Assembly (NCBI GenBank): GCA_964187785.1
Contig: OZ076409.1
Coordinates: 41,976,001 to 42,040,000, forward strand
Source of the DNA: Amphiscolops sp. MND2022
Taxonomy: Eukaryota
DNA length: 64,000 bases
Direction: 5' to 3'
The notes under the pieces are model-generated. The model did no database searches, had not been told where the DNA came from, and saw only the letters and a list, made by a program, of their open reading frames with translations. Positions within the stretch are counted from its first letter, which is position 1, and the number at the start of each line of letters is the position of its first letter. Shown piece after piece: positions 26,364-46,354 of this stretch. The position numbers and the translations under genes were made by a program.

Positions 26364-26545
26364 GTTCATTTCCGTGTATCTACGAATGGCAGTTCTGTGA
26401 CGGGCTATTCGACTGTCCGGCCATGGTGGATGAAATCAACTGTCCCCCTAAGGCCAAGCTCAACTGCAGTGAAGAGCAGGGTAGAGTGGCCTGTGCAGAC
26501 AACTCTAGATGCATCAAAAAAGAATGGAGATGTGATGGCTACCAG
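26364..26545 (+). CDS. ENaC-like gene exon B: LDLa repeats
   Basis: ttttcag|GT ... CAG|gtacga; SFPCIYEWQFCDGLFDCPAMVDEINC ... CADNSRCIKKEWRCDGYQ completes the repeat begun in exon A. Confidence 0.92.
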
Positions 26546-26687
26546 GTACGATAGCCCATTGTTCTCTGCCCCATTGTTTTTACTTCCTTTGTTCAGGGTT
26601 TTCCTTGAACTGTCCCCGCAATGGAAATTTAACTCAGTAGCTATTGCGACATAATATAAAGTTAGACAGTGTTATCACTGCAATATC

Positions 26688-27407
26688 TGTAACGGCAACT
26701 GCCCATGTCAAAATTTTCGAAGCAAAAATTCGTTCAAATCTGACGTGGCACTCAAACATGCTCCAGACGAAAGACCTGTCAAAAAAGCAGATCAGAAATC
26801 AGAAATCGCCCCCGCGAGAGACGACGAGAAGAGAAGACGTAGAAAACAGTCCCTAGAACACGGTGAAGTGCTCATCTTTGGTCTTTGGCGTTTACACTAC
26901 ATAGGCAACAGAAACCGGTGTTCCAGATGCTCGCCTGAAGATCCTGCGGCGTCCTGTGCGGTGACGAGCGCTAGCGCTGGGAAGCCATGGTCAATTCATT
27001 CCTACTAAAAACTCAAACTTCCGATATTGTTGTGCTTGTTGTGCTTTCCTTGTTGTAGTAGATTGATATGCTCGAGAGCTGCCCATTTACATCTATGGTT
27101 ACCCCTTTTTGATGTCGATTTTATCAGATTCTCCAATACTATGGCTCTACATCCTCCCGTTTTCAGCCCCCTTTTTAAAGGCTAATTGAGCAGTGGTCTT
27201 GAGACATGCAAGATGCCCGTTACTTTTAGCAATTACAGACTAGGACCAGGCCAGAGAGTTTCCAACAAGACGGTTCCCCCACCTTGGGACTGGCTCCTTC
27301 GGAGGGAAAATGAGCTAGGGCCGCGGAGATCTAAGTCCCAGATTATATTCGCTGTTCTAGTTCCTCCATTCTACGTTGCGGTTCAAGCGCCAGCGCTTAT
27401 CGTTACA
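26688..27407 (+). repeat. 5' LTR of the giant Gypsy
   Basis: 7-bp inverted termini; no difference from 44877-45596 found by eye; LTR-internal ORFs translate identically. Confidence 0.97.
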
Positions 27408-27422
27408 TAGAACCTCATTTTT

Positions 27423-27440
27423 TGGCGACCACAGAGGGAT
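27423..27440 (+). promoter_or_regulatory. Primer-binding site, tRNA-Arg-like
   Basis: TGGCGACCACAGAGGGAT is complementary to a tRNA 3' end ...CCCTCTGTGGTCG-CCA, as in GACC-start tRNA-Arg. Confidence 0.75.
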
Positions 27441-28620
27441 CGTCTTGGGAAGCTTTCCCTAGCGGTTTTTAAAAGATCTGGCCCCCTGGTAATCAGCGCC
27501 AAGCCCGTTTCGACTCTGAAGAAGGAGAGAGAAGCAGAGTTTTGCCCTTTTTTAGTCGTGTGACATTCTACTGGAACTGGGAGAAGCGTTGAACCAGAGA
27601 AAACCCGAAAAAATCACGTTTTCAGGTGCGAAAATGGTATTTTTAGGTGTTTTGGAAGGAAATCGATATTTTTGTGTGATGTGTTGTGTGCCCATCAGCG
27701 GGTATCTTTTTGCAGGTGCTGAAGACCGTAGCACGTGGCTACGGGTGTTTAACAGGTTTTGCAAGCTATTTTCAGCCATTTTATGCCATGCAAGAGGGTG
27801 ACTGGTGGATGGCTGACCATGAACCAGCGAGGCGAAGGGGAAGTCAAATTGTGTGTTGCCTACTTCCTACTCCCATTTCTCGTGGAGACGTCCTAGAGGT
27901 ATGGTTTTTGGTGGACGGCAAGTGCAATTGCAGACGATGCTAATGGTCCAACCCGCGTGTCTCTATCTGGTCTGGATGTGGAGAAAAAGCGTGGTGAAGG
28001 TGCACCCCCTGTGACCGGACGCGTCGCTCAAATGGCTCATGGTCGGTGAAATTTTTGAAAATGCACCTTTTTCGACGGGGAATCGTTGGTGCAGGTCAGT
28101 AATGTTTTATTGTAGATGTAACGACACCCTACGAAGTGCTTTTCTGCAAAAAAGATAGCACTTGCGTGAAAAAACCTTGATTTTGCGTTTTTTTCGTGTT
28201 TTTCGTGGTTTTGAGCACTTGTGCTCAACGGAGCCAGGAAAACTTCATGAAAAGTGTTGTAAAAAGCAGCTACAAGGCTCGAGAAAGCTAGTACGAGGCA
28301 CAGAAGGCCGTAATTTAGCCTTTGGTTGTGATAAAAGTGCCGATCTAGCACCAGAAAATTGCAAAAAAGTGGAATTTTGACCAAAATGGCACCCAGAAAC
28401 ACAGGCGTACACTGGTGTAGAAGTATGAAAAAGCAGTGTACGGTGTTTTGTCAAGCGTAGTAAACCCACGGGACACTAACTGTAACTTTTGCAGCGGATT
28501 CAGGCAGCCTGGGGCTGACACGGTGCAAAAAACCGGTAATTTAAGGTGTTTTTAGGCATAGAAAGTGCATTGTCTGAAAGTCTTGAGGGTGAAGCTTAGT
28601 GGACCAGAGCGAGTCTGAAT

Positions 28621-28894
28621 GCTCTTATTTTCTGTTTTGGTAATAAAAATAACGCATTGTGGTGAAAACCGCGTGCAAAAATTCCTTTTCATTGCTGAGA
28701 AAAGTTGAAAAACCTTGATTTTTAGTCAGTTTTAGGAGTGTCTGAGTATACAGTTAAAACCCCTTGGGCACTCTGTCTTTTTGTTAGCTAGGAGCCTTCG
28801 CGCTCTCATTTTCTGTTTCTATAATAAAAATAACGCATTGTGGTGAAAACCGCGTGCAAAAACTCCCATTCAGTGCTGAGAAAAGTGGAAAAAC
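28621..28894 (+). repeat. Two ~92-bp direct repeats (period 181) in the Gypsy 5' leader
   Basis: TAATAAAAATAACGCATTGTGGTGAAAACCGCGTGCAAAAA core at 28641 and 28822. Confidence 0.9.
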
Positions 28895-30112
28895 GCACTG
28901 GATTTGATCAATTTTCCACAAAACCGGACTGTCTCTGAGTTAGGGTCGGGTCATCGATTCCTGAACCCTAGCCAAAAAGTGGTTGCATTTCCGTAACCAC
29001 CACAAAAAGTAACGTTAGTGCCGAAAATTTGGTGGGCGTATCGTTCCCCAAAGTCGAGAAAAGCTCTCTGACGTTTTGACTTCAGAGGAGCTGAAAAAGC
29101 CGAAAAATTCCAAAACTGCAGGACTGTCAGTGCCTTATATCCAACGGGCATAACCAATTGAGGGTTTACCCCAGTGCTACGGGTAGTGGGGCAACACGTT
29201 GGTCCCATTTTGTCCGCCGTACCACTTTCTGAAGTGATCCTCTTGGTCAATTTGTGAAAAAGTTGTCAAAAACAGTGTTTTTTCGCGTACAACGTACATA
29301 GTGGGTCGGAACTTCAAATAAGCGCTTGCGCTTCAATTCGACCACATCAGCGGCATTGTAGGTGCCCACAGGCATAAACTACCAAGTTTGGTGCCGATCT
29401 GTGTGATACTTGTGGAGAAAATAGGCAAAAAGTGGCACCCAAAAAGGTGTGCAAAAAGGCAGTTTTTTCTTGATTTTTCCAAGTAACCCGGGTACCTTAG
29501 CCAACGGGTGGGGCCATATTGCAGCCTACCATCGTAACCTGTGCTAGTTCTTACGTCGCTGCAGAGAATTTGAGCTTGCTAGCTCGTTCCAGTGGACCGC
29601 AATCTTGAAAAAGACGTGAAAAACAGTGTATTTTGGTACATAGTGGTACCGCACGTCTGTACCTAGGTGAAACTGTGTAGAAGGGGCGCAGCTCAAAACT
29701 GTGTTTATCTTCGTGAACCTACACGTACCTAAGATCTGCTGGTCAATTTTGGGCTTGATACAACGCCCCCAGCGCACACACGAGCCTCTTGAGTGTTGTA
29801 GTGCAAATTTTGGAAAATCCAAAAAATCTTTGAAATTCTTCCTGTGAGTGACCGGAGACGTTTTGCCCCGAACCAGGTTGATTTTCTGGCCCAGTGTGCT
29901 TGTGGAAAAGCGCTGTGTAAATTTGAACAGCCTACGAGCCTTAAAACGTACTTCGAGAAATTTGGGACGTGGTGAAACAGTCAAATTTCTTAAGTCCACA
30001 CCGAGACGAGCCCAAAGCTAACAGCGACTCGACAAATCCCGCGTTGTTCGAGGCTTCTTTAAAGGCTACGTCCGAATCGTTGACACCTGTTCTGCCATTG
30101 GCATTGAGTGTA

Positions 30113-33100
30113 ATGGTCCTACCAGGCCTGGAAAAGCTTGACATGAGTTCGCAATCATGGGTGACCATAGGATCCACAATGGACGGTTCGCATTTTTCAG
30201 ACGAAATGTCTGACGAAGTCACTATCGAGCAACAACGAAAGGAGGAACTGGCCGCCATGGTCCCTCCCTCCGAGGGTTCCGCTGCATCTGGAAGCTCTCG
30301 TCGAACCGAACAATGGGTCGAAGAAACCTGTCGTGAAAGAGCCAATGAAGCAGAAGAAGAGTGGCCCAACTCAAACGTGACCAACGAACTTGCAGCTGAG
30401 GAAGGGTGCTCTCGCGCACCCCTAGGGGAACAAATGAGCTCTCGCCTACAAATCACGGTGGATGAGGATCTGACCTACTCGGAAAACACGAGTGGTGCGA
30501 GACCGCAAGGGACTGGAGTCACTCGAAGTAACCATAGAGTTTGTGCTTATGGCAAACACAAGAAAGTGCGACCGCCCATGATAAATGTAGGTGAACGTCA
30601 AGTTGAGGTGCCTCGTAAGAGGAGCGTGGCAGGTTCAGTAGCATCATCCCAACGATCTTCGGTGTACAAAGCAGCAATATTGGAAGCCCAAGCCGAGACC
30701 CAACGTGCCTTAGCTGAACTGGCTAGCACTCGTGCTGGATGCAATGACCAACACCGTGCCATCGCAGAAAATATGAGAACATTGCAGACAACGATGCGAG
30801 AAGGTCTGCAGGTCAGTGATCAACTGCGAACCGCGCAGAATACGCAGGGCGCTCGCGTAGATGCACTAGGATACAGAATGGGTGAGATGAATGACCTTCT
30901 GATGGCCCGTGAACTTCGTGTGGAAACCCAGATCAATGATTTGAGTAACCAAATGCACACTGTGCTCAATGCTATCAACATCATGAGGCGCGAAAGGTCC
31001 CTCCCACGACAAGCTGGCGCCACTGAAGGTGTGCCGATCGCGGATTCAATGAAGGCCACGGAATCATCGCACCGGAGTCAGGCAACAAAACCCGAGTTGG
31101 CGAGCGTATTGAAGCCCAGCACCTCCAAGTCGACAACGCCTGAAACCCGAACCAAGGATCCTGTGCCCATCATGGCTGCCGTGGAGCGCAAACCTGCACG
31201 GGTGCAGGTAAGAGGGCCCCACGACTCCTCGTCGATGAGCCAAATGACATCCTCCATAGTTCGAAGTGCCACCCGAGACCAAGGTGTGGACCCGATGTCA
31301 CCTATCTATCTAGATACTTCTACCGAAGTTGATTTATCCTGTACTAAGGCCACACTAGGGTCCCAGACTGATGGAGCTGCGTATGTGACGGCCCCTACCA
31401 TGGTTTCTGGAACGGACTCCATGTATCTGACCGCCGACTGGACAGCTGAGGACGGGATGCCCTCGGGCGCTCCTTGCGCGAGCAGCACTCGCAGGAAAGA
31501 AGACGTGACGAACCTCTCAGTGCGAGCTACGCATGGCAGTGACGACGGCACCGATGATGTGGCGCCTAAAGAAGGAGAGGCTGAAGCCATTTCTCCTGAA
31601 CAATTGAGGTTCACTGCCGCCATTTCCAAAGCAATGTCCAAAGAACTAGCACCGTTACTTGCGGGACGTGACCTGGCTCAGACCAAACCCAGTGTGTATC
31701 GAGGCTCTAAGGACGGATCTATTGATGGCTGGATCCTAGTGATGCAGCGATACTTAAAAAGAATCCAAACCAAAATCTCGGCCGAAGATCGGGCCTGGAG
31801 TATTATCGGTCACCTCGAAGGTGAGGCTCGCAACTACATTATCAACAAGGCAGAGTCTGAACGTGACACCCCCGAGAAGGTGTTCGAGCTGCTATCTAGT
31901 CGATTTGGCGCGGGAGGAAATCGCATGCAGGTGCGGCAGACTTTCCAAAGCCGCGTCCAACAAGAAAAAGAAGACTGGATGCAGTACTTAGACGCTTTAG
32001 AGGGTCTCAGGAGCCAAGGGTTCCCGCAAGAAAGTATCACTACGAAACGCTATGAAATCCTGCAACGCTTCATGGAAGGTGTGCGAGATCCAGTGTTGAG
32101 GCGTGAACTTGCTATAGTATACGCCTCGGAAACTTTTCTTACCGAACCCCCTACCGTGGAGTCCTTGCGATTTACCACACGTCAGCTGCAACGCAATCGC
32201 CCCAGACCCACCCAACCTCAACAACCCTATGATCCCCGCTTAGCCATGAGGTCTAGACCTCATCCTTTCGCACCACTACCGCCGAACAAGATGGTTATGC
32301 CGCAGGGCGTCTTGCCACCTCCGGCGCCCCCCCAAAATGTCCCAGTTCCGGCTGTCCCAGCTCCCGTCCGAGCGCCAGTAGGTGCTTGTTTTCACTGTGG
32401 GCAAAACGGACATTTTGCTCGCGAGTGCCCCAATCGTGACCAGGCCCGAAAACCAATGACCGCCTCCGAACCAGAGGGCGTGAAGGTGACCACGGAAGAC
32501 ACGACCGATGGTATCCTTGAAGGTCATCCAGGGATCTATCAATGCGCGAGCTGTGGCCTTTTTGATCAGGCGGAAGTGCAATGTGGAGAGCACTCCCATG
32601 CGCCGAAACCCAATGAAGAGTTGGCCTACAATCGGTGGGCTGAGGTCGAATCAGCTGGCATCGCCGCGCACACCGTACCTTTGGAAGATGACCGAGTGTT
32701 GATGCTACACCCAGCGGAACCGCCTGCGTTCCACACTCCGATGACTTTCACTTGTGGTGCTAAGCAAGTTCAAACCTGCTTGGAACCCACAACGTTCGAT
32801 CCGCAAGGACGTACACTGATTTCAATTCACCTGTTGCTGGCAGCTGAGCAAACACGTAGGCCGACGCTAACTCTGGCGAAGCTATGGGTCGAATTATCTA
32901 TCCTCTATAAACGAAACGAGTTACCTCGACCGAAAGAATGGTACGCTCCGGGAGAGTCTGCGACTCTGACAACGTATTCCCCAGTGCCAGTCTGCGCTTC
33001 AATGGATGGAGTGGACATGAAGTTCGAAGCCTGTGTGGTGGTGGATGTGTTTCCCCCTGGCATTTGTCTGGGTCCCCAGGAGCTCAAATGCTATAACATC

Positions 33101-36100
33101 AATCACCAGGAGCCCACCGGCGAAGCGCGTATAGATGAGCGTGCGTCGCTCGTGGTCTCTTTCGTGGTGCCTCATGCAGCACCTATTCCGCTGCGAGGAC
33201 TGGTGGACACTGGCTCGGGCGTCTCCATACTGACGTTTTCCGCCTTCAACAGAGTGGCAGCTAAAACTGGAACGGTACTTAAACCCTACCAAGTTGACCT
33301 ATACGCAGCCAACGGGAAGACAATAAAAACCTACGGCCTCGCAGAACACATCCATTTCCAGCTGGGAGGATACGAACTTGAAACGAACTTTGTGGTGGTA
33401 GATGACGCAATGGGCGTGGAAGACTTCCTACTTGGCCGGAACTTTCTTCGCTCCTACCAGGTGTTAGTGGATCTAACATCTATGAAGATTGTGGTGCGAG
33501 CACCAGTGAAGCCTGTGTGGCATCATGCTCACGCACAGGTAGGTGACACTTCAATAGCTACTCCAGTCGTTTTGGACAGTGACTTGGTCCTGCAACCTTT
33601 TGAACGAGCGGTGGCTAGAGCCAAGCTCGTCACCAACACACTAGAGCCGCTGATTTTTCAAAGCGTAGCACTCAATGCCTCTTTGTCTGACACTACGTTG
33701 CACAATGTCGTCTTTTTAGAGGACAGCGTGGCCACTGTCAGTGAGACAGGAACACTCTTTGTGAGTCTGATAAATCTCACCAGCAACCCTCAACGTATGC
33801 GGTGTGGTGTACAACTGGGCACCGTAGTACCCGTAACGGTAGTATACCAAGCAGTACCTCAATGTTTGGACTCTCCCACTACAACCGGCACTAAAACTGA
33901 CGCCGACGACAGTCGTGCAAATTTTGTTCATAAAGTTTATAGTGAAGTGAATCTATCTACTGCTTCTGAGTTAACCTCTTCTTCCGAATTTGAGTTTTTG
34001 TCCTCTACTGACCCTAGCGAAGCAGGACTATCGGAGCGCGAGATTCGCAAACGAACAGACCCAGAGCTAATGGCTCCGATTCCTGGGCCGGAATCTCAGC
34101 TCAAGGCGGTCAAGGATTTGTGGGGCGCTAGCGCCTGCGAGTCTCTCCGTAACCTCCTCGATGAATTCGATGAGCTGTTCATGAAGCACAAAGCAGATAT
34201 CGGTCGGTGCACTATCGCTAAGCACACCGTGGAGGTGGAACCAGGGGCTGTACCGCATCGCGAAGGTGCTCGCCGGATGTCTCCTGAGAAGGCCGAACGT
34301 GCCAATCAGGAGGTACGGAATCTCTTAGCTCTGGGAATGATACAGCCCTCGCTGTCCCCCTGGGCGAGCGGCATTGTAATGGTGAAAAAGAAAAACGGGG
34401 AGTTACGCTTTTGCTGCGACTTCCGCCCGTTAAATGAGGTAACCATTAAGGATGCTTATCCCTTGCCCCGCATCGATGAAAGCCTGGCACGGCTAGGCAA
34501 AGCAAAGATCTATACCAGCATAGACCTTGCTTGGGCCTTTTGGCAAATTCCCGTACGCAAAGCGGATCGCCACAAAACCGCTTTTGCTTGCGAGTTAGGA
34601 CTTTTTGAGTGGCGGCGAATGCCATTTGGTATGTGCAATGCATCTGCCACGTTTCAACGGTCAATAGCGCGTGCGCTAAGGAATATTGTCAATCGTGAGG
34701 GCAGCATGGTCATGGCCTACATTGATGATATCGTGATTGCCACGGAGACTGTGGAAGACCATATGGTACGTCTACGTGAAGTCTTTGAATGTCTCCGTGA
34801 GGCCGGTTTCAAAATGCGCGTGGCCAAATGCGATTTCATGAAATCGGAAATCAAATATTTGGGACGAGTGGTATCCGCAGAAGGAGTGAAGCCCGACCCA
34901 AAAGCCGTCGTCAAGTTGCGTGACTGGGAAATTCCCCGCAACAAGACGGAAATGCAGAGTTTCCTTGGATTTGCCAACTATTATCGCGAGTTCATTCCTT
35001 GGCACGCCAAGCTGGTTGCACCCCTGCACGCCGTCACTGGACTGAATGCCACCTTCGCCTGGGGTCCTGAGCAACAAACCGCATTCAATGAGATCAAAAA
35101 AGCCCTAATCGAGGCAACTGCGCTCGCACAGCCTGATTCCGAAGGAGAGTTTGTGTTGGACACTGACGCTAGTGCTGTCGCCATTTCGGGTATCCTGCAC
35201 CAGTGGCAAGGCCCCCCGGGTGAACGACGCCTGAGACCGATAGTTTACGGTAGCAAGAAGCTCACCACCACACAAGCCAAATACGGAGCCCCCAAACTTG
35301 AAATGTTCGCCGCTTACTATTTCATAGTGAAGAACCACAGCTATTTATGTCCCCGAAAATTTACCCTGCGGGTGGACAACCAAGCTTTGTCCTGGTTGAA
35401 AACCTACTCCACGGATCAAGCGTTAATCGGCCGATGGATCATGACCCTGGAAAAATATCACTTTCGCGTGGAACACCGCCCAAGGACCCAACATCGAAAC
35501 GCCGATGGCTTGAGCAAACGAACCAACGAGTACCGATGCCGCGAAAAACAGCTTGCACAGCAGCCAGCTGCGGGCGAGCGCTGGAACTTTCTTTCAGCTG
35601 ACGAATTTGATAAACTACCTGTTGCCCCATGGTTCGACCTTCAGGGTCGAGTCATCCCGAACCATCCCGAGTTACCTGCGCACCTGCAGAACTTGGAGCC
35701 TACGGCTCCCGACCAATTGCTACGCGTACTTCGCCGCACCAAACGAGCGACCAGGAGGGACAGACAAGCGAAAGCATTCGCAGCCCCTTTACCACCTCCG
35801 CCTGCCCTTGCTCTGCAACTGCACGAGGATGCCTATCCAGACTACCCTGAGGATTGGATCGATGTGACTGACGAAGCACGCGAAGATTATCTATTGCCAA
35901 CGCATGCCGTAAATGTTCCCTCGCGTACCGTCTATGCCATTGCCGGGGTGAATCCTGTGGCGTTGCAAGGTACTCCCTCGGGTGTGCGCGACTCAATTAT
36001 GGCTCTTAAAGATATCAACACTGAACTTCACGAACATGCTCACACCGTGCATGGTATCAAAGATTTGGTTCTAGCCCAAAACCGTGATGTTCATGTGCTA

Positions 36101-39100
36101 GCACTCAAAAAGTTGGTGCTGAACGAATCTATTGATCACGACGTGTTTCCCGAGAACGTGCGTGAGTTCGCACGCAACTACTACCGTCAGAAGAAAACCC
36201 TCCTGTTTATCAACAAGAATGGTGTACTTTGCGTACAATACCCTCCCAACCAACGTCCCCTGCACGAACGTCCGTGCATGATCGTCATGCCACAACTGTA
36301 CCAGCATGAGATTTTATTCCGCGCGCATGACGCTATGGGACATCAAGGTATCTCCAAAGTGGTGGCTAGGATTCAAGAACGTCACACATGGCCTGGTATT
36401 CGGCGCAGCGTGGGCCGTTACGTTGGCCAATGCCTCACCTGTCAACAAGTGCGGGATAAGCCTGGTGACGTCCGATTCCATTTAAAGAATATCCAGAGCG
36501 GATACTTCAACGAATTGGTTCAATATGATCACCTGAAAATCTGCCCCTCAGACAGTAATAACACCGGCATCTTGGTCATAATTGACCATTTCTCCAAGTT
36601 CGCGGAAGCAGTGCCCTGTAGTCATCATGACTACGACGCTGTGACTACCTCTCGGTTGCTGTTGCAAAAGTGGTTCGCCCGTCATGGCACACCCACTAGG
36701 ATGCAGTCTGACAATGCCCCTAATTTGACTGCCGAGGTGTCCAACGAATTCCTAAAAGCAGCCCACGTCACCAAAGTAACCTCTACAGCTAGCCATCCGA
36801 GAACCCAAGGCTTGGTCGAGCGCCAAAATCGGACGCTGCTGACCCTACTGCGAGTTTTTTGTTCCCGCCGTATGCGCGATTGGGACCAATGTCTTGATGA
36901 GGTCATGGGTGCCTACAACTCTACGAGGCACGCTACCACTGGCTTCTCTCCCTATATGCTGACCCGTGGCGTAGAGAAGGCCATCCCTCTCACCTTCTTG
37001 TATCCCGAGTTTGCAGCCAAATCATTCGAGTCGCATGAGGCGTATGTCGATCATGTATTGGCTCGCCAACAGGAAATACATGACCTGGTACGGCGTAACA
37101 CGCACCAAGCCCAATTGCGTCAAAAATTGAAGTACGACCGTGCTATACAAGCACGAGCTTACCAAGTAGGCGAGCTCGTCTGGGTTTTTTGCCGCTACGT
37201 ACCGCAAAAGGGTTCCCCGAAATTGATGCGTGCTTGGCGAGGCCCGCACAAAGTGGTACAAGTTTTTCAGGACGGTCGTGTCTATGTACTAGACACAGGT
37301 CAAAAAGTTCATTTTGAGCGTCTTAAACCGCACCACAGTGGCCCCCTTGAACTTGCTACTGCACACTCGGACAGTGGTGAGGTGGTGGTCCTCATGGACC
37401 CCGAACCTGAACGTTCCGTCGACGTAGTTGATGACGACAAATCTTTATCGTCGTATAAACCAGAACAACTACTTTCAGAGGCGTCCGATGCATCTTTGCC
37501 CTCACGTCGACGTCACTGGATGGACACCCGACTACGCTCGAAACTTCGCGCAGGCGGCTCCCGCCCGCATTATCAGCAATTTGACTATTCCACATCGGGT
37601 ACAGACGACGAACAATCCGATGCCATGTTGCCGATACCTCCTAATCCAGTGGACGAGGATCTAGCGGAGCCTGCGGCTCCTCCGACTACGTTGGATCAGT
37701 CAATATCCCCTGCCCGTGTATTACCCCAGCTGTTCTCTGACCATGAGCGCGTGCGCTCACCGTCTCCGCAAATATCCTCTGAAGAAGAGACATCGTTACC
37801 AGGAACCTCAGCATCCTTGTTAACGAATCCCTCGCTAACCAACTTTCTTAGTAACTATCCCATATGGCCGACCGCCCCTCCGATCCCCCTCAAATCTGCC
37901 AGCAGCGACAGCGACGGTCAGCCCGATCTGCCTGATGCTCCCGAGACTTCGCCAGGAGCGGGGACCGCTCCTTCTCTTAAAAGGGGGAGGGGGAGACCAC
38001 CCAAGGCACAGAAGAAACGGCTGATTCGAGCGAAGGCAAGAACGAGGAAGAAAGAAACACCGAGAAAAACCGAAGCTGAAACTGCGATCCAGGCCGAAAC
38101 GGAAGCTCCCAGAACTGCAGAGACGCTAACAGAAGCATCTGCAACTGCTCTTAGGTATCAACTAAGGAGTAAGCGACAGCCGCGCTACAAGTGTGGAACC
38201 TGCGGGCTGCGAGATTGTGTCTGCTTATTAGCTGTGAATGAGAACCGGAGGGTTCCCATTGGAGCCCGGGGAGTTCCTCCGGAAGAGAGAGAAAACTTGG
38301 TGTACCGCCTCACGGTGCGGGCCGAGAAAACCTACTCAGCTGTAGAGCGGTCCGGAGACTACCCTGTGGACACTATCCTGGAGAAGTTGTCACTGCCTGG
38401 GGTAACGAAGGCCCCTTGTCCTAGGTTTAAGGAGTGGACAAGCGATGGAAAGGGCCTGGAGTTTACCCTGCCCACGGTGTTGCCCCCCGTGCCCAGTAAT
38501 GTTGCGTTTGGACCATTCAATTTTGAAAGGGAACCTGTGCAGATGGTCCGATGCATCACTGCTGACTTGTTGTGCGACAAGTATGGAGTCCAGGTGGAAC
38601 CAGGAGGGGTATACAGCCCGGCTCCTCACTGGTGGCTGCTGGTAACAGCTCCACGAGTGGAGGCGCTGGTAGAACCGTTGAATCTGTTATCCTGTCTGGA
38701 GAGTCTGAGGACCCTCACCACTGTGGACTTAATACTTTGCTTCCATATTATAGACTGGTACCGAGGCAAAATGAAGTTCGCGTGGTGGCTGGAACTAATA
38801 ATCACATGTTTCGCCACCTATCCCAGAATTCGACTATTAGATGAGTGGACCCACACTTTCGAGATCCCCTTGTTCCCTAAAGCCGCCCTGGGAACTTTAG
38901 ACGCGTGGGTAAAGGCCGGCAGCGACAATCGAGCGATGCCCCGCTCAGTGTGGCAAGACCTGGCTGCAGTCCAAGGGCGTACCCCTCGCGTGTGTCTGCC
39001 CTCAGATAATGGCCCCGGACGAGAGATTGTTTACCCGGGAGCCCTGTATCCGAACTCAGCCGAACACGTCTCTTACGATGAATCCGATTTCTTGCAGGCC

Positions 39101-39526
39101 GAGGGCGACATAGTGTTAGCATGCCCTGCTGACCTGAAGACCAACTCTGCCGCCCTGCGATATGTGCTGCGGGAGTGCGGCATGGAAGATGTATTTGCCT
39201 TACGACCTAAAGTGGGCGAGATTCTCACTATCCCGCCCGATGTGAACCCCAACCCCAACCAAAGTATTCACCTGTTGATAGTCCGTGCTAACCAGCGCGC
39301 ACCGCTGCTGACAGACGACTACTTGCGTTGCATGGCGCACTTGACACAGCGCCTGATTGATAAAGGATCCACACGGGTCCACCTACCGATTCTGGATCCT
39401 GAGAGACCGGCTTTCTCGTTGGTTAACCTGTACCATACTCTAGCGAGCATGTTCGAGGGTACTGGTATTCACGTGGTTTTGCATAGCCGCGTATATGTAT
39501 CAATATTAACTATAGGGCTGAAGTAG
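30113..39526 (+). CDS. gag-pol: Gag-Pol polyprotein (~3137 aa from the first ATG) with a long post-integrase extension
   Basis: Uninterrupted frame (open from 29969): CFHCGQNGHFAREC knuckle 32387, LVDTGS 33206, dUTPase-like segment ~33560-33836, YIDD 34718, LDTDAS RNase H ~35150, HHCC and D-D-E integrase ~36326-36820, WRGP motif ~37234. Confidence 0.96.
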   Translation: MVLPGLEKLDMSSQSWVTIGSTMDGSHFSDEMSDEVTIEQQRKEELAAMVPPSEGSAASGSSRRTEQWVEETCRERANEAEEEWPNSNVTNELAAEEGCSRAPLGEQMSSRLQITVDEDLTYSENTSGARPQGTGVTRSNHRVCAYGKHKKVRPPMINVGERQVEVPRKRSVAGSVASSQRSSVYKAAILEAQAETQRALAELASTRAGCNDQHRAIAENMRTLQTTMREGLQVSDQLRTAQNTQGARVDALGYRMGEMNDLLMARELRVETQINDLSNQMHTVLNAINIMRRERSLPRQAGATEGVPIADSMKATESSHRSQATKPELASVLKPSTSKSTTPETRTKDPVPIMAAVERKPARVQVRGPHDSSSMSQMTSSIVRSATRDQGVDPMSPIYLDTSTEVDLSCTKATLGSQTDGAAYVTAPTMVSGTDSMYLTADWTAEDGMPSGAPCASSTRRKEDVTNLSVRATHGSDDGTDDVAPKEGEAEAISPEQLRFTAAISKAMSKELAPLLAGRDLAQTKPSVYRGSKDGSIDGWILVMQRYLKRIQTKISAEDRAWSIIGHLEGEARNYIINKAESERDTPEKVFELLSSRFGAGGNRMQVRQTFQSRVQQEKEDWMQYLDALEGLRSQGFPQESITTKRYEILQRFMEGVRDPVLRRELAIVYASETFLTEPPTVESLRFTTRQLQRNRPRPTQPQQPYDPRLAMRSRPHPFAPLPPNKMVMPQGVLPPPAPPQNVPVPAVPAPVRAPVGACFHCGQNGHFARECPNRDQARKPMTASEPEGVKVTTEDTTDGILEGHPGIYQCASCGLFDQAEVQCGEHSHAPKPNEELAYNRWAEVESAGIAAHTVPLEDDRVLMLHPAEPPAFHTPMTFTCGAKQVQTCLEPTTFDPQGRTLISIHLLLAAEQTRRPTLTLAKLWVELSILYKRNELPRPKEWYAPGESATLTTYSPVPVCASMDGVDMKFEACVVVDVFPPGICLGPQELKCYNINHQEPTGEARIDERASLVVSFVVPHAAPIPLRGLVDTGSGVSILTFSAFNRVAAKTGTVLKPYQVDLYAANGKTIKTYGLAEHIHFQLGGYELETNFVVVDDAMGVEDFLLGRNFLRSYQVLVDLTSMKIVVRAPVKPVWHHAHAQVGDTSIATPVVLDSDLVLQPFERAVARAKLVTNTLEPLIFQSVALNASLSDTTLHNVVFLEDSVATVSETGTLFVSLINLTSNPQRMRCGVQLGTVVPVTVVYQAVPQCLDSPTTTGTKTDADDSRANFVHKVYSEVNLSTASELTSSSEFEFLSSTDPSEAGLSEREIRKRTDPELMAPIPGPESQLKAVKDLWGASACESLRNLLDEFDELFMKHKADIGRCTIAKHTVEVEPGAVPHREGARRMSPEKAERANQEVRNLLALGMIQPSLSPWASGIVMVKKKNGELRFCCDFRPLNEVTIKDAYPLPRIDESLARLGKAKIYTSIDLAWAFWQIPVRKADRHKTAFACELGLFEWRRMPFGMCNASATFQRSIARALRNIVNREGSMVMAYIDDIVIATETVEDHMVRLREVFECLREAGFKMRVAKCDFMKSEIKYLGRVVSAEGVKPDPKAVVKLRDWEIPRNKTEMQSFLGFANYYREFIPWHAKLVAPLHAVTGLNATFAWGPEQQTAFNEIKKALIEATALAQPDSEGEFVLDTDASAVAISGILHQWQGPPGERRLRPIVYGSKKLTTTQAKYGAPKLEMFAAYYFIVKNHSYLCPRKFTLRVDNQALSWLKTYSTDQALIGRWIMTLEKYHFRVEHRPRTQHRNADGLSKRTNEYRCREKQLAQQPAAGERWNFLSADEFDKLPVAPWFDLQGRVIPNHPELPAHLQNLEPTAPDQLLRVLRRTKRATRRDRQAKAFAAPLPPPPALALQLHEDAYPDYPEDWIDVTDEAREDYLLPTHAVNVPSRTVYAIAGVNPVALQGTPSGVRDSIMALKDINTELHEHAHTVHGIKDLVLAQNRDVHVLALKKLVLNESIDHDVFPENVREFARNYYRQKKTLLFINKNGVLCVQYPPNQRPLHERPCMIVMPQLYQHEILFRAHDAMGHQGISKVVARIQERHTWPGIRRSVGRYVGQCLTCQQVRDKPGDVRFHLKNIQSGYFNELVQYDHLKICPSDSNNTGILVIIDHFSKFAEAVPCSHHDYDAVTTSRLLLQKWFARHGTPTRMQSDNAPNLTAEVSNEFLKAAHVTKVTSTASHPRTQGLVERQNRTLLTLLRVFCSRRMRDWDQCLDEVMGAYNSTRHATTGFSPYMLTRGVEKAIPLTFLYPEFAAKSFESHEAYVDHVLARQQEIHDLVRRNTHQAQLRQKLKYDRAIQARAYQVGELVWVFCRYVPQKGSPKLMRAWRGPHKVVQVFQDGRVYVLDTGQKVHFERLKPHHSGPLELATAHSDSGEVVVLMDPEPERSVDVVDDDKSLSSYKPEQLLSEASDASLPSRRRHWMDTRLRSKLRAGGSRPHYQQFDYSTSGTDDEQSDAMLPIPPNPVDEDLAEPAAPPTTLDQSISPARVLPQLFSDHERVRSPSPQISSEEETSLPGTSASLLTNPSLTNFLSNYPIWPTAPPIPLKSASSDSDGQPDLPDAPETSPGAGTAPSLKRGRGRPPKAQKKRLIRAKARTRKKETPRKTEAETAIQAETEAPRTAETLTEASATALRYQLRSKRQPRYKCGTCGLRDCVCLLAVNENRRVPIGARGVPPEERENLVYRLTVRAEKTYSAVERSGDYPVDTILEKLSLPGVTKAPCPRFKEWTSDGKGLEFTLPTVLPPVPSNVAFGPFNFEREPVQMVRCITADLLCDKYGVQVEPGGVYSPAPHWWLLVTAPRVEALVEPLNLLSCLESLRTLTTVDLILCFHIIDWYRGKMKFAWWLELIITCFATYPRIRLLDEWTHTFEIPLFPKAALGTLDAWVKAGSDNRAMPRSVWQDLAAVQGRTPRVCLPSDNGPGREIVYPGALYPNSAEHVSYDESDFLQAEGDIVLACPADLKTNSAALRYVLRECGMEDVFALRPKVGEILTIPPDVNPNPNQSIHLLIVRANQRAPLLTDDYLRCMAHLTQRLIDKGSTRVHLPILDPERPAFSLVNLYHTLASMFEGTGIHVVLHSRVYVSILTIGLK

Positions 39527-39820
39527 CCTTTTCATTTTAGTTGTCCCCATTTTTCCTTTGCCCTCAGTTCTTGTATCAGTTTTTGTAACAACCTTGGCAG
39601 AGCCTTGAAATGCTCTCGAGATGTTAATTTGTCATGTTGTTCACTCAAGGTTTTGTTCTAGTTCGTTAGTTAGTTAGAGTTAGATTTTAAGTTTGTAGTG
39701 GCCCCTTTATGGAGCCAGCGTTGCCTGGCTGCAATTGAGGGACGAACCGACTCGCGGCTCGTTCCAGAGAGAACTTGTCCCTGTAAGTTTAACAGTGGTC
39801 CTTTTTAGACCTATGCATTA

Positions 39821-42490
39821 ATGGCCCATTGCCCTAACAATTCAGCGCCTGCAACTGGGTCTAATAGTGCAAGGCCCCAGGAATCTGCGCGAGCGCAGAG
39901 GGTCAATCAGGCCCAATATGTCGAAGAAAGGCTGCGGGACGGTCTTTCGCCAGTAGCCGTAGCTGGAGTGGCCGCCCTACTGACCCAGCTTGAATCGATG
40001 CAAATGCTGCCAAATGCATCTTTATCAATCACCACGGAGGTGGCAAGCTATCGTCGCACCTTGACGTGCACCAACAATGCTTGGGATGGGCACGATCTGA
40101 CTCACCAGTTCTTGGACGAAAGATCAATCGCAGTGCATGGCCCCAGCCAGGGCACCAGATTCGAACAAGAAACATCACTGCGCATGATGCCCGTCAACGT
40201 CCCATCGCTGCCTTCCATTGCGGCACCAAATCCAGTGCAGATGACGCCGCATTCTAGCTCGATTGCTTATGGAGCACCATATGGAACCCGGACAACGACG
40301 ACGCAGAACACTACCAATCAACCAGCCTCAAGTCGGGAGCCCTCGGGGTCCCAACCGCCATCAGTGCCTAATCTAAATCTGATTGGACGGAGTCCCAGCG
40401 AGCAAGCAGTGATTGTGGCCCTGCAGGCTGTCGCCAACTACCCCAACTCCTCTGACTTCGTTCGTGCCGTTGAGCAAAGGATTCCCGGATTGACACATTA
40501 CTTGCAAGCTGCCGCTCAGCCCTCGGGCTGCGTCACCCCACCCACCACCCTAGCCGAAACTGTGTCTATGGAAGCAGAAACTACGGCTGGACCAAGCACC
40601 AGCGCCATGACCTATCCCCGTGAGGAAACTGGCCGGAAGCGACTTACTGAGGAAAATATCGTCGCTACACGCCATGATTCCGTGACCGACAGTCCGACCA
40701 GTCGTCCCCCTCCGGACAAGCGAGCAGATGTACCCCACCAGTCGCAGATGAAAAGTGTGGTGGTCGTGAGGCCTCCATATCGCCATGGCCACCTAGGCGT
40801 AGGCGCGCCTCAGATGTCCCTGGAAGAGGCCATCAACCGCTACGGCAGTGTGGAGGCGAATCCTGAAACGAGTCCTGTGCCCTCGGGCACAGGCTCTGCC
40901 AACATGTCCTTGGAGGTGTCCGAGACAATCGATGAGAACAATCCTCCCGCCTTTCTTCCCCCGTCCGATGACGTATCTGGGACAGTGGTGACTGGCGACA
41001 GCAAACGCATTTGGATGGCGGCGGAGTGTTTGTACCCAAACACGTGTGCGATCAGAAGGAGGGCACCGCCGTCTGACGCCGACCAGAAAGAAGTGAGCAG
41101 GATCACCATTGCGGCTCAGATAACTCGGTCGCTGCGTGCCCGTGATGCGGACATGAGCGAGCAAGCCTGGGAACAGCGTGCTCGAGAGCAACTGCCCGCG
41201 ACACCCAACAATTATATGGCTCGCCTGCAGCATGACCTCGCCGAGCAATTTCCTGCTAGGTACATGTTGCACGAAGGGGAGACCTGGGAAGCCAACGCCC
41301 GCTATGCTCGCAACATCGAATCAATGAAGCCCCTTCTGAAAGCGGCCCTGCAGCGTGCGCGCTACTGTGTGGCAGTGGACTCGACACTTAGGAGTGATCT
41401 CCCCATCGACAACCTTCTACCCGACGTGCTGGTATTAACAATGCCACTCTCCCGCTTCGCTGAGGTTGCCGAGATGGTCGCGGTCATGTATGACCCTAAC
41501 TTGAGGGGATCTCTAAGAGAGCCGCCCCCGCGACGTGTGATCTTCACAAATCTAATCGACCACATGGCTTGTGAAGGGGTGCTACGCAACCTGGATGCCC
41601 TCATGGCAGATACCCGCAGACCTGGGAGTGTAGCGTCCTTAGTGAACGTGGTTGCAGATGCAATGGAGCGTGCAGCAGGGATCCTTCGGGGTCGTCTGGG
41701 AGCGCTCGCGCTCTTCGCATCCCCGCCGGGATTCATGTATTGGCAACGAAGCTTGCAGCAATTTGTGTACATCCTGTCTGAAGTATGCAAAGCGCGCCGA
41801 ATCGAGTTCGCTATTTGCGCGCCAAATCTGCGAGTTGATCGAGGAGACCTACGCCCAGATGCATTGTCATACCCCGCCTTCTTTGCTGCCGTGTCAAGAG
41901 TACTAATCGCTGTGGAACGATCAGGAAATGCCCAACTGACTATCGACGACGCTATACTGTTCGATCATGGAATGTGTATGGGGCGCATGGCCTTCGACTT
42001 GGACGGGAATCGCGTCATGCGAGCATCCAACCTGACTGAACGAGAAGCCGTCCGACGATACAACTGGCTGGTGCGGAAGGACAAAGAAATTCCCGTACGA
42101 GCAGAGCTGGCAGAGCTCGTGAAGGAAATTGAGACCTGGCCCGCCACGCGCACGGTCGAAAGGACCATTCCCCAGATTCGATTTGCCGCGGGAATAGAAC
42201 CCGTCAAGTTGCCCGTGGGCATGAGGTACGTCGTGGCCATAGAGGCGACCAACTTGAAGGCTGAAGTAGATGCTGCCGGAATAACGTATGCCGAATGGTA
42301 TCAGTCCAGATTCGTGGACAGGACCCTGGCAGAGGTAGCTCAAGAGCTTAACTGTCCCTTGGAAGCCTTTTGTACCAGTCTCGGACTGGGCTGGAACATC
42401 GACGTGATAGCCTCTGAGTACTTGCTCACCAATGTGCAGACCGATAAATTGTTGGAAACCATCGGCGAAGCTACTGTGGGGAGATGTTAG
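39821..42490 (+). CDS. Gypsy ORF2 N-terminal part (889 aa): disordered N-terminus plus SGNH-fold-like domain
   Basis: Long sense ORF between pol and the 3' LTR; CVAVDSTLR / VLTMPLSR / VIFTNLIDH / DLRPDALSY motif series. Confidence 0.8.
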   Translation: MAHCPNNSAPATGSNSARPQESARAQRVNQAQYVEERLRDGLSPVAVAGVAALLTQLESMQMLPNASLSITTEVASYRRTLTCTNNAWDGHDLTHQFLDERSIAVHGPSQGTRFEQETSLRMMPVNVPSLPSIAAPNPVQMTPHSSSIAYGAPYGTRTTTTQNTTNQPASSREPSGSQPPSVPNLNLIGRSPSEQAVIVALQAVANYPNSSDFVRAVEQRIPGLTHYLQAAAQPSGCVTPPTTLAETVSMEAETTAGPSTSAMTYPREETGRKRLTEENIVATRHDSVTDSPTSRPPPDKRADVPHQSQMKSVVVVRPPYRHGHLGVGAPQMSLEEAINRYGSVEANPETSPVPSGTGSANMSLEVSETIDENNPPAFLPPSDDVSGTVVTGDSKRIWMAAECLYPNTCAIRRRAPPSDADQKEVSRITIAAQITRSLRARDADMSEQAWEQRAREQLPATPNNYMARLQHDLAEQFPARYMLHEGETWEANARYARNIESMKPLLKAALQRARYCVAVDSTLRSDLPIDNLLPDVLVLTMPLSRFAEVAEMVAVMYDPNLRGSLREPPPRRVIFTNLIDHMACEGVLRNLDALMADTRRPGSVASLVNVVADAMERAAGILRGRLGALALFASPPGFMYWQRSLQQFVYILSEVCKARRIEFAICAPNLRVDRGDLRPDALSYPAFFAAVSRVLIAVERSGNAQLTIDDAILFDHGMCMGRMAFDLDGNRVMRASNLTEREAVRRYNWLVRKDKEIPVRAELAELVKEIETWPATRTVERTIPQIRFAAGIEPVKLPVGMRYVVAIEATNLKAEVDAAGITYAEWYQSRFVDRTLAEVAQELNCPLEAFCTSLGLGWNIDVIASEYLLTNVQTDKLLETIGEATVGRC

Positions 42491-44100
42491 CGCTCGCGCT
42501 AGCCATGGGCCCGACGAAGTTTGTGGCAGGTCCCCTTGCTATGTTAGTCGAGTTGGTAGTGTCTAGTGATCTAGTCACTTTCTACAGCTACCTGATCCTC
42601 GCGCAGGGACAATTACGCAGCCTAACTCGATGGGGTCACCTCCTAAATTCCAAGGACCAGCAAGACTATGTCGCCCAGCTAGAACGCATGCGTGCGTCCC
42701 TCCAACATTGGTTGTACTCCACCCTAGTGTTCGCCTCTGGCTTGTTCGTAGGCGTGGATCAATCGCAACCCCTCCACCATTCCGAGCGTCAACTCCCTGC
42801 GGAAACGGCGGGATTCCCCATGCCCCAGCAAATCGCCGATTTGACTCTGGCCGAAGTGGAGGACTTCGTGGCCGTTATGGCTTCCGTCTTGGCTCCAATC
42901 TTCGGTGCGGTCGGTGTGTGCCGGTATCCCACCAGACCACTGACGAGAACAGTACAGGTGCATATGGTCTCCTTCTGCACCTATCTTCAAGGACGGCCCC
43001 CACTAACCTACCAACGAATCGTACAGGCTGTATTGAGTGGCGAGATGCCGCACGGGTACACCACCTTGAAGTCGGAGAAACAACTAGAAGAGAATTTGAT
43101 GGGTCTGTTGCGTGCTCGCACACGAAAAGCGTGCCCTTTGCCACGAGAATACGGCCCAGTCAACTGGTACTCCGCACCACTCAGCCTGAATGGAGTCCCC
43201 TTTAGATTCCCCTGGTCGCAGGAGTTCATACGCAAGGTGATCCGAGCCAGCATTAGTGCTGGTCCACCCGTAGATCCTCTGTACGCTTTCAAATGCATCA
43301 CTTTCCCAAATCACTACTGGAAGGAGCCACTGGGATGGCCTAGGGCAAAACCCGTTGGTCGCGCCCCTGAAGCCTTCAATCGACAAATCCAGTATATGGA
43401 ATTGACTCAAATCCCAAACTGGATTGAAGGAGCAGCTCAGACTCGTCAGAGAAACCTGCAGAGCCGTGTGACTCCGTTCCCAAGAAAAGCTGCCTGGCGA
43501 CCGCAAGCCAAGATGACGATGTCAGGGGATATGTCCATCGTCCAACACGATGAGATTAATTCTGTGCTAGGCTCTGAAGCCCGCGCAGAGTGGGAAGGAC
43601 ATTGTTTGGAGCTGGAAATTGCCAGCTTCCCCAAATGGAAGCGAGCTTGCGAGCTCTGGAGTCAGCCCGGCTGGGTCTCCAAGCGGATATCCTTGGCCGT
43701 GGAGAGCAGAGCTGAACTCGAGAGACAACAGGCGTTCGCGCCTACCATGCTGGCACCCACAATGGCCATGTCACTAAGTCAGCCCATCGACCGGCCCGTG
43801 ACCCTGGATTTGCCCACTCATATCCTGCAGGCAGAGCCTGTGAGTCCACCATCGACACAAGCCAGTCCTCAGTCATCACAACCCCAGACCGGAGAACACG
43901 ACGCTGAACTGACCCCCAGCACTATCCTGGTGCAGCCAATCGCCGATTTGACGCTCCCAGAGGACCTGTCCGACTCGGAAACAGTAGTTACTGTGGTTCC
44001 TGCTCAACGCAGAGCGTCAGTTGCGTCGGAAGATGCCAGCAATCCAGGAGCTCCCGATGATGCCATAAAGAATCGAGCTCGACGCAGCTCAGCCCAATAA
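42484..44100 (+). CDS. Gypsy ORF2 C-terminal part or ORF3 (538 aa), function unknown
   Basis: Overlaps the previous ORF by 7 nt; one extra G in GTGGGGAGATG would fuse the two. Confidence 0.75.
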   Translation: MLALALAMGPTKFVAGPLAMLVELVVSSDLVTFYSYLILAQGQLRSLTRWGHLLNSKDQQDYVAQLERMRASLQHWLYSTLVFASGLFVGVDQSQPLHHSERQLPAETAGFPMPQQIADLTLAEVEDFVAVMASVLAPIFGAVGVCRYPTRPLTRTVQVHMVSFCTYLQGRPPLTYQRIVQAVLSGEMPHGYTTLKSEKQLEENLMGLLRARTRKACPLPREYGPVNWYSAPLSLNGVPFRFPWSQEFIRKVIRASISAGPPVDPLYAFKCITFPNHYWKEPLGWPRAKPVGRAPEAFNRQIQYMELTQIPNWIEGAAQTRQRNLQSRVTPFPRKAAWRPQAKMTMSGDMSIVQHDEINSVLGSEARAEWEGHCLELEIASFPKWKRACELWSQPGWVSKRISLAVESRAELERQQAFAPTMLAPTMAMSLSQPIDRPVTLDLPTHILQAEPVSPPSTQASPQSSQPQTGEHDAELTPSTILVQPIADLTLPEDLSDSETVVTVVPAQRRASVASEDASNPGAPDDAIKNRARRSSAQ

Positions 44101-44876
44101 ACCCTGCCGCCACTGGGAGCGTTCGCGCTCCCTATAGACTCTAAACTCTACCGAAACTGTGCCTTCAAACTTGTTGCTTTAGCCGGTGCTACCCCTACAT
44201 GGTGCAAATTTTTGTTCATAGTTATTACTTAGTTATTGTACTGTTAGTAATGCGCTGGGTGTACGGTCAATAGAGTGCACCTGCCCCAGCTGCTTCGCCT
44301 ACAAAGTAAAAAAGAATCTATTACCAAAGAAAAACTGTTATTTCTGTTGCGCACCGTTCGCGGTGTTTTTGAGTTGCCATGGTCTAGAAAAAGTCTTAGC
44401 CTTTTAGTTACGATTTTTGCCGTTTTTTTTTGTGTTTTGGTGCTCAAGCACCTTCTATCGACTGTCTAAGGAGTAGCCGAAGCGGCGCGCTCCCAAAAGA
44501 AGTTTTATGTTGTTCGAAATTGATCGAAAACTGTAAATGACTAGTTGCACGAAAAAGGAAATTTTAGCTGACCTTGGTCGCAAAAGAATTTTTAGCGAAA
44601 ACTGCTTGCCCAAACGAGTTTTAACCGACTGAAAACCTTGGCTCTCGAGCTGGTGCTAAAACCTCGTTTGCACTTTTTGTAAAAATACTAGGCAGTAAAA
44701 TTTTCTTTAAAAAAAAAAAAACAGCGAAATTTGTCAAAAATAGTTGCTGAAAAACAAGGACTCGTCCTTGTCCCCTGTGGTGTGGATGATGATCCCCAGC
44801 AGTCTCAGCGATGCCGTTTCCAGACGAGGCCAGATGCCGCTTGCCAGGGACGACAAGCCAGAAGCCCGGGGAGTGA

Positions 44877-45596
44877 TGTAACGGCAACTGCCCATGTCAA
44901 AATTTTCGAAGCAAAAATTCGTTCAAATCTGACGTGGCACTCAAACATGCTCCAGACGAAAGACCTGTCAAAAAAGCAGATCAGAAATCAGAAATCGCCC
45001 CCGCGAGAGACGACGAGAAGAGAAGACGTAGAAAACAGTCCCTAGAACACGGTGAAGTGCTCATCTTTGGTCTTTGGCGTTTACACTACATAGGCAACAG
45101 AAACCGGTGTTCCAGATGCTCGCCTGAAGATCCTGCGGCGTCCTGTGCGGTGACGAGCGCTAGCGCTGGGAAGCCATGGTCAATTCATTCCTACTAAAAA
45201 CTCAAACTTCCGATATTGTTGTGCTTGTTGTGCTTTCCTTGTTGTAGTAGATTGATATGCTCGAGAGCTGCCCATTTACATCTATGGTTACCCCTTTTTG
45301 ATGTCGATTTTATCAGATTCTCCAATACTATGGCTCTACATCCTCCCGTTTTCAGCCCCCTTTTTAAAGGCTAATTGAGCAGTGGTCTTGAGACATGCAA
45401 GATGCCCGTTACTTTTAGCAATTACAGACTAGGACCAGGCCAGAGAGTTTCCAACAAGACGGTTCCCCCACCTTGGGACTGGCTCCTTCGGAGGGAAAAT
45501 GAGCTAGGGCCGCGGAGATCTAAGTCCCAGATTATATTCGCTGTTCTAGTTCCTCCATTCTACGTTGCGGTTCAAGCGCCAGCGCTTATCGTTACA
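44877..45596 (+). repeat. 3' LTR of the giant Gypsy
   Basis: Copy of 26688-27407 after GAAGCCCGGGGAGTGA. Confidence 0.97.
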
Positions 45597-46354
45597 ATCC
45601 ACGGACAGAGATGAACAAAAGTTTTTAAATCTTGCTACCCTGGTTTAAAAAAAAAAGAGGAAAAGACTGTATGTAAACTATAATTCTTTGATACTTGGGA
45701 TAAAATTCATCGTATTTCAGGCGATTCCTTGTTCCTCTTTGATTAGTGTTTGATTATTTGACCTTAGTTGCAGACTTTTTCCGAAATCTGAGATTATGTA
45801 TAATATAACATGGCGTTATAACTCCTGACTGTTGAATGAATTGAAGAAGAAAATGGTTTTTGGAAAAAAATTCCCCGCGACTAATCAGTAAGCAGCTTTG
45901 CAATGATAGATCACTTTTGTTGATTAAGTGATTATTTATTTTAAAATTTTTAATTTAATAAGTGTTTGTTAGTGAGTTTTCGTTTCTAGAACCATTTAAT
46001 GAATAGCATTTTTTAAGTCAGTTACAGTAGTTCAGGATGCTTTCTTGTATTTCTGGAAGAAAATTAAGAAAAAAAAACAATTTTCTCAAAATGGTATATC
46101 CGTTGCTTTCTGATACAGAATGTGAACAAATTGAATGAAAGCTGGTATTTCAAACTCTTGCAGCCGATTAAATGTTTGCCATTTTTCACAGGAATTTAGG
46201 GTTATGATGGAAGTTTTAAGGGAAAACATTTCGCAATCCGCAATTCATTGACTTCAGGATTAATGAATCTCATGGTTGAATCGATATTCTAAACATAAAC
46301 AATTATAAATAAAAGAACCCTTGAAATGATGTTCCGTTTCTTCGTGCCCAATAG

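Follow-up and report, generated by a model that had tools for sequence, protein, structure and literature searches.

Ty3/Gypsy elements of Amphiscolops sp. MND2022 with 3-bp target-site duplications and putatively non-enzymatic macrodomain and SGNH-fold cargo

Long terminal repeat (LTR) retrotransposons of the Ty3/Gypsy group, such as Ty3, combine LTRs with TG...CA termini, a tRNA primer-binding site, the order Gag, protease (PR), reverse transcriptase (RT), RNase H (RH) and integrase (IN), and an integrase with a D-D(35)-E core and a GPY/F-like motif. All of this is shared by an element at positions 26688–45596 (forward strand; 18,909 bp) of a 64,000-bp window of the genome of Amphiscolops sp. 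MND2022 (assembly GCA_964187785.1, contig OZ076409.1, positions 41,976,001 to 42,040,000). The element differs from Ty3 in its length of 18.9 kb, a 2.7-kb leader, a tail of 730 amino acids (aa) behind the integrase, a second open reading frame (ORF2) of 1,426 aa, a 3-bp target-site duplication, and a primer-binding site that lies 15–16 nucleotides (nt) off the LTR. By its sequence features it is a member of Ty3/Gypsy (Metaviridae), with TG...CA LTRs flanked by a duplication, the order PR–RT–RH–IN, a tRNA primer site and a short polypurine tract. RT searches rank Ty3 first, ahead of retroviruses and caulimoviruses (E 1e-102, against 4e-47 for the next group, by score rather than by tree), and a cluster search for the clade of the RT returned generic Gypsy clusters only.

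Several described retroelements carry comparable cargo. Vesta elements of bdelloid rotifers have an SGNH-fold ORF (GDSL/SGNH ORF3) in the position of env, whose catalytic residues are reported intact and which lacks transmembrane segments (PMC5408684). Compared by description, the SGNH domain of the present element lacks its His motif and is embedded in a protein of 1,426 aa with further domains. The ORF1p esterase of ZfL2-1 (PMC3905857; PDB 4c1b) is another retroelement SGNH protein, which binds anionic membranes by surface charge, but it has an active Ser-Asp-His triad, a non-LTR host and a gag-like position; its match to ORF2 is weak (Foldseek E 0.25). Burro/GYPSM1 of planarians is also a large, high-copy, cargo-laden Gypsy element; it encodes one long polyprotein, in which a dUTPase-like insert separates PR from RT (in the present element, a presumed resemblance), but it exceeds 30 kb, its cargo comprises BIR, BCL2, MATH and ankyrin domains and an env-like region, and the available text does not mention "macro" (PMC6431247). 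The label "giant", given to the present element in a first-pass annotation of the window, holds only in relative terms, as the internal region of 17.5 kb is below the 20-kb bar of PMC6431247; Pfam matches to apoptosis or ubiquitin families were not found. Chromoviruses likewise have an accessory module fused behind the integrase, a likely tether (10.1101/2021.11.30.470311), whereas the tail of the present element has no Pfam match to a chromodomain and carries AT-hooks and macrodomain folds instead. No description of a macrodomain on a Gypsy integrase was found in the literature searched (including the available parts of PMC5408684, PMC4695847, PMC11088682 and 10.1101/2021.11.30.470311). SGNH cargo and large size have a precedent, as does, in one statement, a 3-bp duplication; the combination was not found described, and Repbase or Dfam could already list the family. 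Some insect Gypsy Pol proteins carry Poa1p-like macro annotations, so that the capture may not be unique.

On balance, we favour with moderate confidence a Gypsy lineage with 3-bp duplications whose conserved accessory modules likely act as catalytically dead binding modules and not as counter-defence enzymes. Of 38 elements surveyed, 33 were delimited automatically, and 30 of these are flanked by exact 3-bp duplications; one has 4 bp, none has 5 or 6 bp, and two show no exact duplication (with shuffled flanks, 1.6 elements on average and at most 7 had 3 bp). Among the five remaining elements, inspection gave 3 bp in two, one was unresolved, and two lacked an LTR pair. The 5-bp duplication of a BEL/Pao element elsewhere in the window shows that 3 bp is not a general effect of host or method. 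The sites form a weak palindrome: of 30 duplications, 18 have an A at the third base before them, 17 a T at the third base after them, and 25 an A or T in the middle.

Retroviral integrases make staggers of 4–6 bp, and the range for LTR elements overall is 3–6 bp (PMC10045372). A 3-bp duplication is therefore at the edge of the reported range and not unheard of, with precedent in one statement. One source cited there, PMC2836005, gives 3–5 bp for IS3/IS481, and its available text does not mention "3-bp"; among titles and abstract openings of the literature searched, we found no description of an LTR family with 3-bp duplications. A stagger of 3 bp would be shorter than those of retroviruses, so that this integrase lends itself to testing how the length of the duplication depends on target bending and on the spacing of the active sites.

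The displaced primer-binding site recurs across the lineage. An exact pattern of LTR end plus primer site finds 3,305 junctions genome-wide with a spacer of 14–17 nt, compared with 10 junctions at 11–13 nt and none shorter; the reversed control gave 0. In the two sister families of the D/E group, the primer site fits tRNA-Lys(TTT) instead of tRNA-Arg(TCG), and host tRNA genes match both sites over 18 nt. Genes for tRNA-Lys(TTT) form a tandem array (C7:5219967–5254998 and beyond) with a spacing of about 193 bp, and the pattern has 922 matches genome-wide. By the standard logic of reverse transcription, a 15-nt spacer leaves a long cDNA extension past the terminal CA. With tRNA-Arg as the primer, about 15 bp of cDNA should therefore project past the terminal CA and would have to be removed, so that the offset of 15–16 nt raises the question of how cDNA ends are processed. 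The first-pass annotation had noted neither the length of the duplication nor the displacement of the primer site. Common LTR finders expect duplications of 4–6 bp and an adjacent primer site, and elements that have neither may be under-annotated.

The lineage is real, young and abundant, and has been active recently. The two LTRs of the element show no mismatch over 720 bp and have a 7-bp terminal inverted repeat, and the element contains no assembly gaps (N). When the LTR was searched against the host assembly of 1.07 Gb, 40 of 2,216 candidates were scored as matches, mostly in pairs about 18.2 kb apart. LTR pairs of the copies differ by 0–8 mismatches per ~720 bp, in a sample that is biased towards young copies because it was picked from top matches or long open frames. 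If all 3,305 junctions belonged to full-length elements, the lineage would occupy about 60 Mb, near 6% of the genome. Sister families, reached via protein matches, have the same layout (18.8–19.3 kb, Pol of ~3,290 codons, ORF2 of 1,400–1,480 codons). The analysis confirms the first-pass view of a young element with identical LTRs, a 2.7-kb leader (2,705 nt), an intact polyprotein of ~3100 aa (3,137 aa) and about 730 aa behind the integrase (GPY/F-like motif at aa 2431). The ~1430 further codons that it placed in env position are interrupted in the present copy, where two frames, of 893 and 550 codons, share 42448–42490. Of 117 scored copies, each with an identity of at least 95%, 81 keep a single frame of 1,430 codons (tallied by hand). 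A programmed frameshift is ruled out by the continuous frame in most copies, and the break is either a mutation or an assembly error. One copy (L123/L124, C11, ~19.335 Mb) sits inside the leader of a related element. In the pair L083 and L094, synonymous divergence (dS) is 0.12 in the RT but 1.4–2.8 in ORF2; such variation of dS along the sequence, present in some pairs, points to recombination between sister families.

The cargo is under purifying selection. Across 15 pairs, with saturated regions dropped, the ratio of nonsynonymous to synonymous divergence (dN/dS) is 0.035 in the RT and 0.026 in the integrase, 0.088 and 0.125 in the two macrodomain repeats, 0.097 in the SGNH domain, 0.081 in the helical domain of ORF2, and 0.29 in the linker; no region comes near or above 1. 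Trees of the integrase (10 rows), the macrodomain (15) and the ORF2 core (18) have the same deep split (rooted at the midpoint; the macrodomain tree carries a long-branch warning). The low dN/dS and the shared split indicate that the cargo is old, co-inherited and functional, and the possibility raised beforehand, that it is not conserved between copies, is contradicted by dN/dS values of 0.07–0.13 in the folded cargo regions. Among top candidates scored, the ORF2 homologues P0153 and P0171, which have the same layout, reach at best 28–31% identity to the genome, and the tail homologue P0280 reaches 49%. Such homologues without a close genome match, recovered as single proteins, likely come from other species. 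Another ORF2 homologue, P0175, is labelled as a protein of a Bacteroidota metagenome bin (816-bp contig) and is likely host DNA in the bin.

Behind the integrase, a low-complexity linker is followed by RGRP motifs and a CxxCGxxxCxC motif, and the tail ends in two macrodomain-like repeats. In a structure model built from a 49-row alignment (mean predicted local distance difference test score, pLDDT, 79), the last 150 residues match TARG1 with Z 16.8, a root-mean-square deviation (rmsd) of 4.1 over 142 aligned residues, and a Foldseek E of 9e-9, followed by DarG (Z 15.3) and Poa1p (Z 13.5), at 12–13% identity. The tail cargo has no Pfam or PDB sequence match, and its support is at the level of the fold. 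The preceding 155 residues resemble repeat 2 (HHalign 66%, E 6e-5; reversed control E 0.14), so that a tandem macrodomain pair, with repeat 1 assigned by this resemblance, is probable.

Compared with the macrodomains of TARG1, DarG and Poa1p, those of the present element share the predicted fold but are probably arranged in tandem and appear degenerate. The candidate phosphate-binding loops have no Gly, and the position that we take to correspond to the catalytic Lys (K84/K80) is occupied by Arg in 40 of 42 rows. This weakens the idea of an enzymatic counter-defence kit, in which the macrodomains erase ADP-ribose marks of the host and the SGNH domain works as an esterase. Such a kit would fit the closest folds, which are hydrolases, and the retained Ser of the SGNH domain, and TARG1 and DarG do reverse DNA ADP-ribosylation, for which they require the catalytic Lys (PMC8501950). 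However, the DxxH motif of the SGNH domain is absent from all 44 rows, and dN/dS values of 0.09–0.13 carry no sign of an arms race at the level of regions. With DxxH absent and the macrodomain apparently degenerate, an enzymatic form of the counter-defence suggested in the first-pass annotation is distinctly improbable.

A second reading retains the ligand and gives up the enzyme: the macrodomains would read ADP-ribose and thereby direct integration to chromatin or DNA breaks that are ADP-ribosylated. The TARG1/DarG fold, an alignment of the tandem to macro 1-2 of PARP14 (Z 11.8, rmsd 15.7), the invariant N-terminal Asp and the fusion to the integrase are consistent with such a role, but both candidate phosphate loops lack the glycines we would expect, repeat 1 lacks part of the fold, and no clustering of insertions was seen; we regard it as rather doubtful. 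If binding were true, a macrodomain fold fused to the integrase would link the reading of ADP-ribose or nucleic acids to the choice of target.

ORF2 has no match in Pfam, PDB sequences or Atlas, and Foldseek found none at E <= 0.001 in the PDB or viral libraries. A model from a 77-row alignment (mean pLDDT 66) contains an SGNH fold at aa 464–705 (Z 11.4, rmsd 3.5, 181 aligned), and nearly all of its top 50 structural matches are of the SGNH type. With blocks assigned from motifs and model strands, Ser of block I is present in 37 of 40 rows and Asn of block III in 45 of 45, but block V has lost DxxH, with Arg-Pro at the His position in 41 of 45. The first-pass guesses of macrodomains and an SGNH-like protein, which find no support in the sequence searches, were thus confirmed at the fold level (Z 16.8 and Z 11.4), and the chromatin-binding motifs it listed correspond to AT-hook-like and Cys motifs common to the families.

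ORF2 is not a glycoprotein envelope. Its env position, the acceptor-like site in front of it (seen in the families displayed, A, B/G, C/F and H) and the conserved hydrophobic segment would suit an unrecognised envelope or fusogen that renders the element infectious. This is very unlikely, because a hydropathy scan reveals no apparent signal peptide, the counts of Cys and sequons vary, viral libraries gave no fold match at the above threshold, and the folded domain is SGNH. The same observations separate the element from errantiviruses and other env-bearing elements, whose third ORF has a signal peptide, a glycoprotein ectodomain and a C-terminal anchor. Alternatively, ORF2 may be an RNA-binding pseudo-SGNH protein that localises or protects the element RNA in the germ line, similar to Oskar, whose OSK domain binds RNA. 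ORF2 matches the OSK domain at the level of the fold (Z 8.0, rmsd 4.6, 158 aligned), it has many invariant Arg and a long disordered arm, and a conserved block in the leader could be the ligand. However, the OSK match ranks only 37th, tied with many bacterial esterases, and the conserved hydrophobic segment points to membranes, which makes this role possible but unlikely.

In the preferred reading, with catalytically dead binding modules, host tRNA-Arg would prime reverse transcription, the cDNA end about 15 bp beyond the terminal CA would be trimmed, and the integrase would cut a weakly palindromic target, leaving a stagger of 3 bp. The tail, with its AT-hooks, Cys motif and two pseudo-macrodomains, would tether the integration complex to DNA or chromatin, as suggested by its position, which is where chromoviruses carry their chromodomain. 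ORF2 would be translated from an RNA that is spliced or trans-spliced, and likely binds membranes by means of its pseudo-SGNH domain and a single hydrophobic segment, which would help particles to assemble or move. Membrane binding is supported by analogy, because liposome binding by the ZfL2-1 esterase persists when its active site is mutated (PMC3905857).

Several observations weigh against these roles. The residues of the macrodomain were placed by presumed correspondence to TARG1 and not by a computed residue alignment, and the invariant N-terminal Asp (45 of 46 rows) and a DPER motif are kept, so that ADP-ribose binding is possible. The Ser of the SGNH domain could also make up a different active site together with a conserved Asp-His that follows the Asn. 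Past residue ~970, the ORF2 model is poor. The pairs used for dN/dS are not independent. Finally, matches to the lineage lie on C1–C13, and no insertion preference beyond the weak palindrome was found at 26 sites (flank GC content 0.378; 1–2 sites in related elements); site targeting, also proposed in the first-pass annotation, is plausible from the position of the tail, but no target class emerged. Self-targeting was rejected, as only 1–2 of the 26 sites fall in related elements.

A more far-reaching reading assumes an undescribed lineage whose integrase has a chemistry of its own (trimming of a 15–16-bp overhang, 3-bp stagger) and is steered by tandem macrodomains that recognise ADP-ribosylation on chromatin or at DNA breaks, while particles that lack an envelope travel from cell to cell on membranes with the help of a His-less SGNH protein; we consider this improbable. 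The features of the element are listed in Table 1.

Table 1. Coordinates of the element and its parts in the 64,000-bp window
Feature	Position	Strand	Remark
Left target-site duplication ATC, 3 bp	26685..26687	+	
5' LTR, 720 bp, TG...CA	26688..27407	+	
Spacer between LTR and primer site, 15 nt	27408..27422	+	
Primer-binding site, 18 nt	27423..27440	+	Complement of host tRNA-Arg(TCG) 3' end
Non-coding leader, 2.7 kb	27408..30112	+	2,705 nt from LTR to first Met (30113)
Conserved non-coding leader block	28790..29499	+	77% identity to family B
Single Gag-Pol frame	29945..39526	+	3,193 codons open; 3,137 aa from first Met 30113
Capsid-like region	31718..32116	+	PNMA match below cut-off, E 1e-4
CCHC zinc knuckle	32387..32428	+	Pfam match
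Aspartic protease (DTGS)	33170..33469	+	
Conserved PR-RT insert	33470..33934	+	No Pfam match
Reverse transcriptase (YIDD) and RNase H	34382..35458	+	Closest solved structure Ty3, E 1e-102
Integrase: H2C2, D-D(35)-E, GPY/F-like motif	36290..37384	+	
AT-hook-like RGRP motif	37979..38005	+	1-3 copies in 6/6 families examined
CxxCGxxxCxC motif	38192..38224	+	In 5/6 families examined
Macrodomain-like repeat 1, degenerate	38474..38938	+	Probable duplicate of repeat 2
TARG1/DarG/Poa1p-type macrodomain fold (repeat 2), Pol end	39041..39493	+	
Pyrimidine-AG splice-acceptor-like site before ORF2	39797..39808	+	Also in sister families
ORF2	39821..44100	+	1,426 aa in unbroken copies; frameshifted here within 42448-42490
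SGNH-fold domain	41210..41935	+	Ser and Asn motifs retained, His motif gone
Helical domain, confidently modelled (pLDDT ~90)	42191..42729	+	
Conserved hydrophobic segment	42865..42921	+	Kyte-Doolittle 1.8-2.3 in 7/7 ORF2s
Short polypurine-tract-like sequence	44864..44876	+	
3' LTR, same sequence as 5' LTR	44877..45596	+	
Right target-site duplication ATC	45597..45599	+	

Within the leader, the conserved block lacks codon-phase bias, and part of it matches the leader profile of the C group (E 8e-15). It has been kept between families whose silent coding sites diverged far more and is a candidate packaging or regulatory RNA, as judged from its sequence. A coding leader is ruled out by mismatches that are evenly distributed over the three phases (88/85/84) and by indels that are not multiples of three. 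In a structure scan, z-scores were low for either strand, compensatory pairs were few and the alignment was poor, and therefore no RNA structure is claimed; the single match in an Rfam scan is at chance level.

In Gag-Pol, Pfam recognises the CCHC, protease, RT, RNase H, H2C2 and integrase regions. We take the insert between PR and RT to be dUTPase-like by general resemblance. A conserved segment upstream of the protease (32987–33103) weakly resembles the C-terminal half of the protease, but a duplicated, degenerate protease was rejected because the match is weak (7.6%). Odin and other dual RNase H elements have a second RNase H between the first one and the integrase; the present element has an insert between RNase H and integrase (35480–36230; 250 aa) that is conserved, with dN/dS 0.11, and matches no family in Pfam.

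The element is probably located inside an intron of a host gene on the same strand, which in the inferred gene model has LDLa, ShK-like and DEG/ENaC exons, as befits an animal genome; the probable exons of the DEG/ENaC gene are at 26267–26554, 46355–46687, 46946–47311, 53429–53725 and 56430–56762 (+). The BEL/Pao element (8961–18229, +) has LTRs of ~430 bp that are 99% identical, the duplication AATAG, a primer site that adjoins the LTR, and a broken pol; its long 5' region contains a 19-bp tandem array (9831–10024) and short ORFs. A decayed, A-rich remnant of a Gypsy pol occupies 1–4513 (+). Short A/T-tract repeats in both orientations (6933–7111, 18407–18545, 19223–19324, 48325–53404 and 60864–62163) are probably remnants of non-autonomous DNA transposons. 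The window also includes a 200-N assembly gap (22577–22776) and a 29-bp tandem repeat of about six copies (63160–63333).

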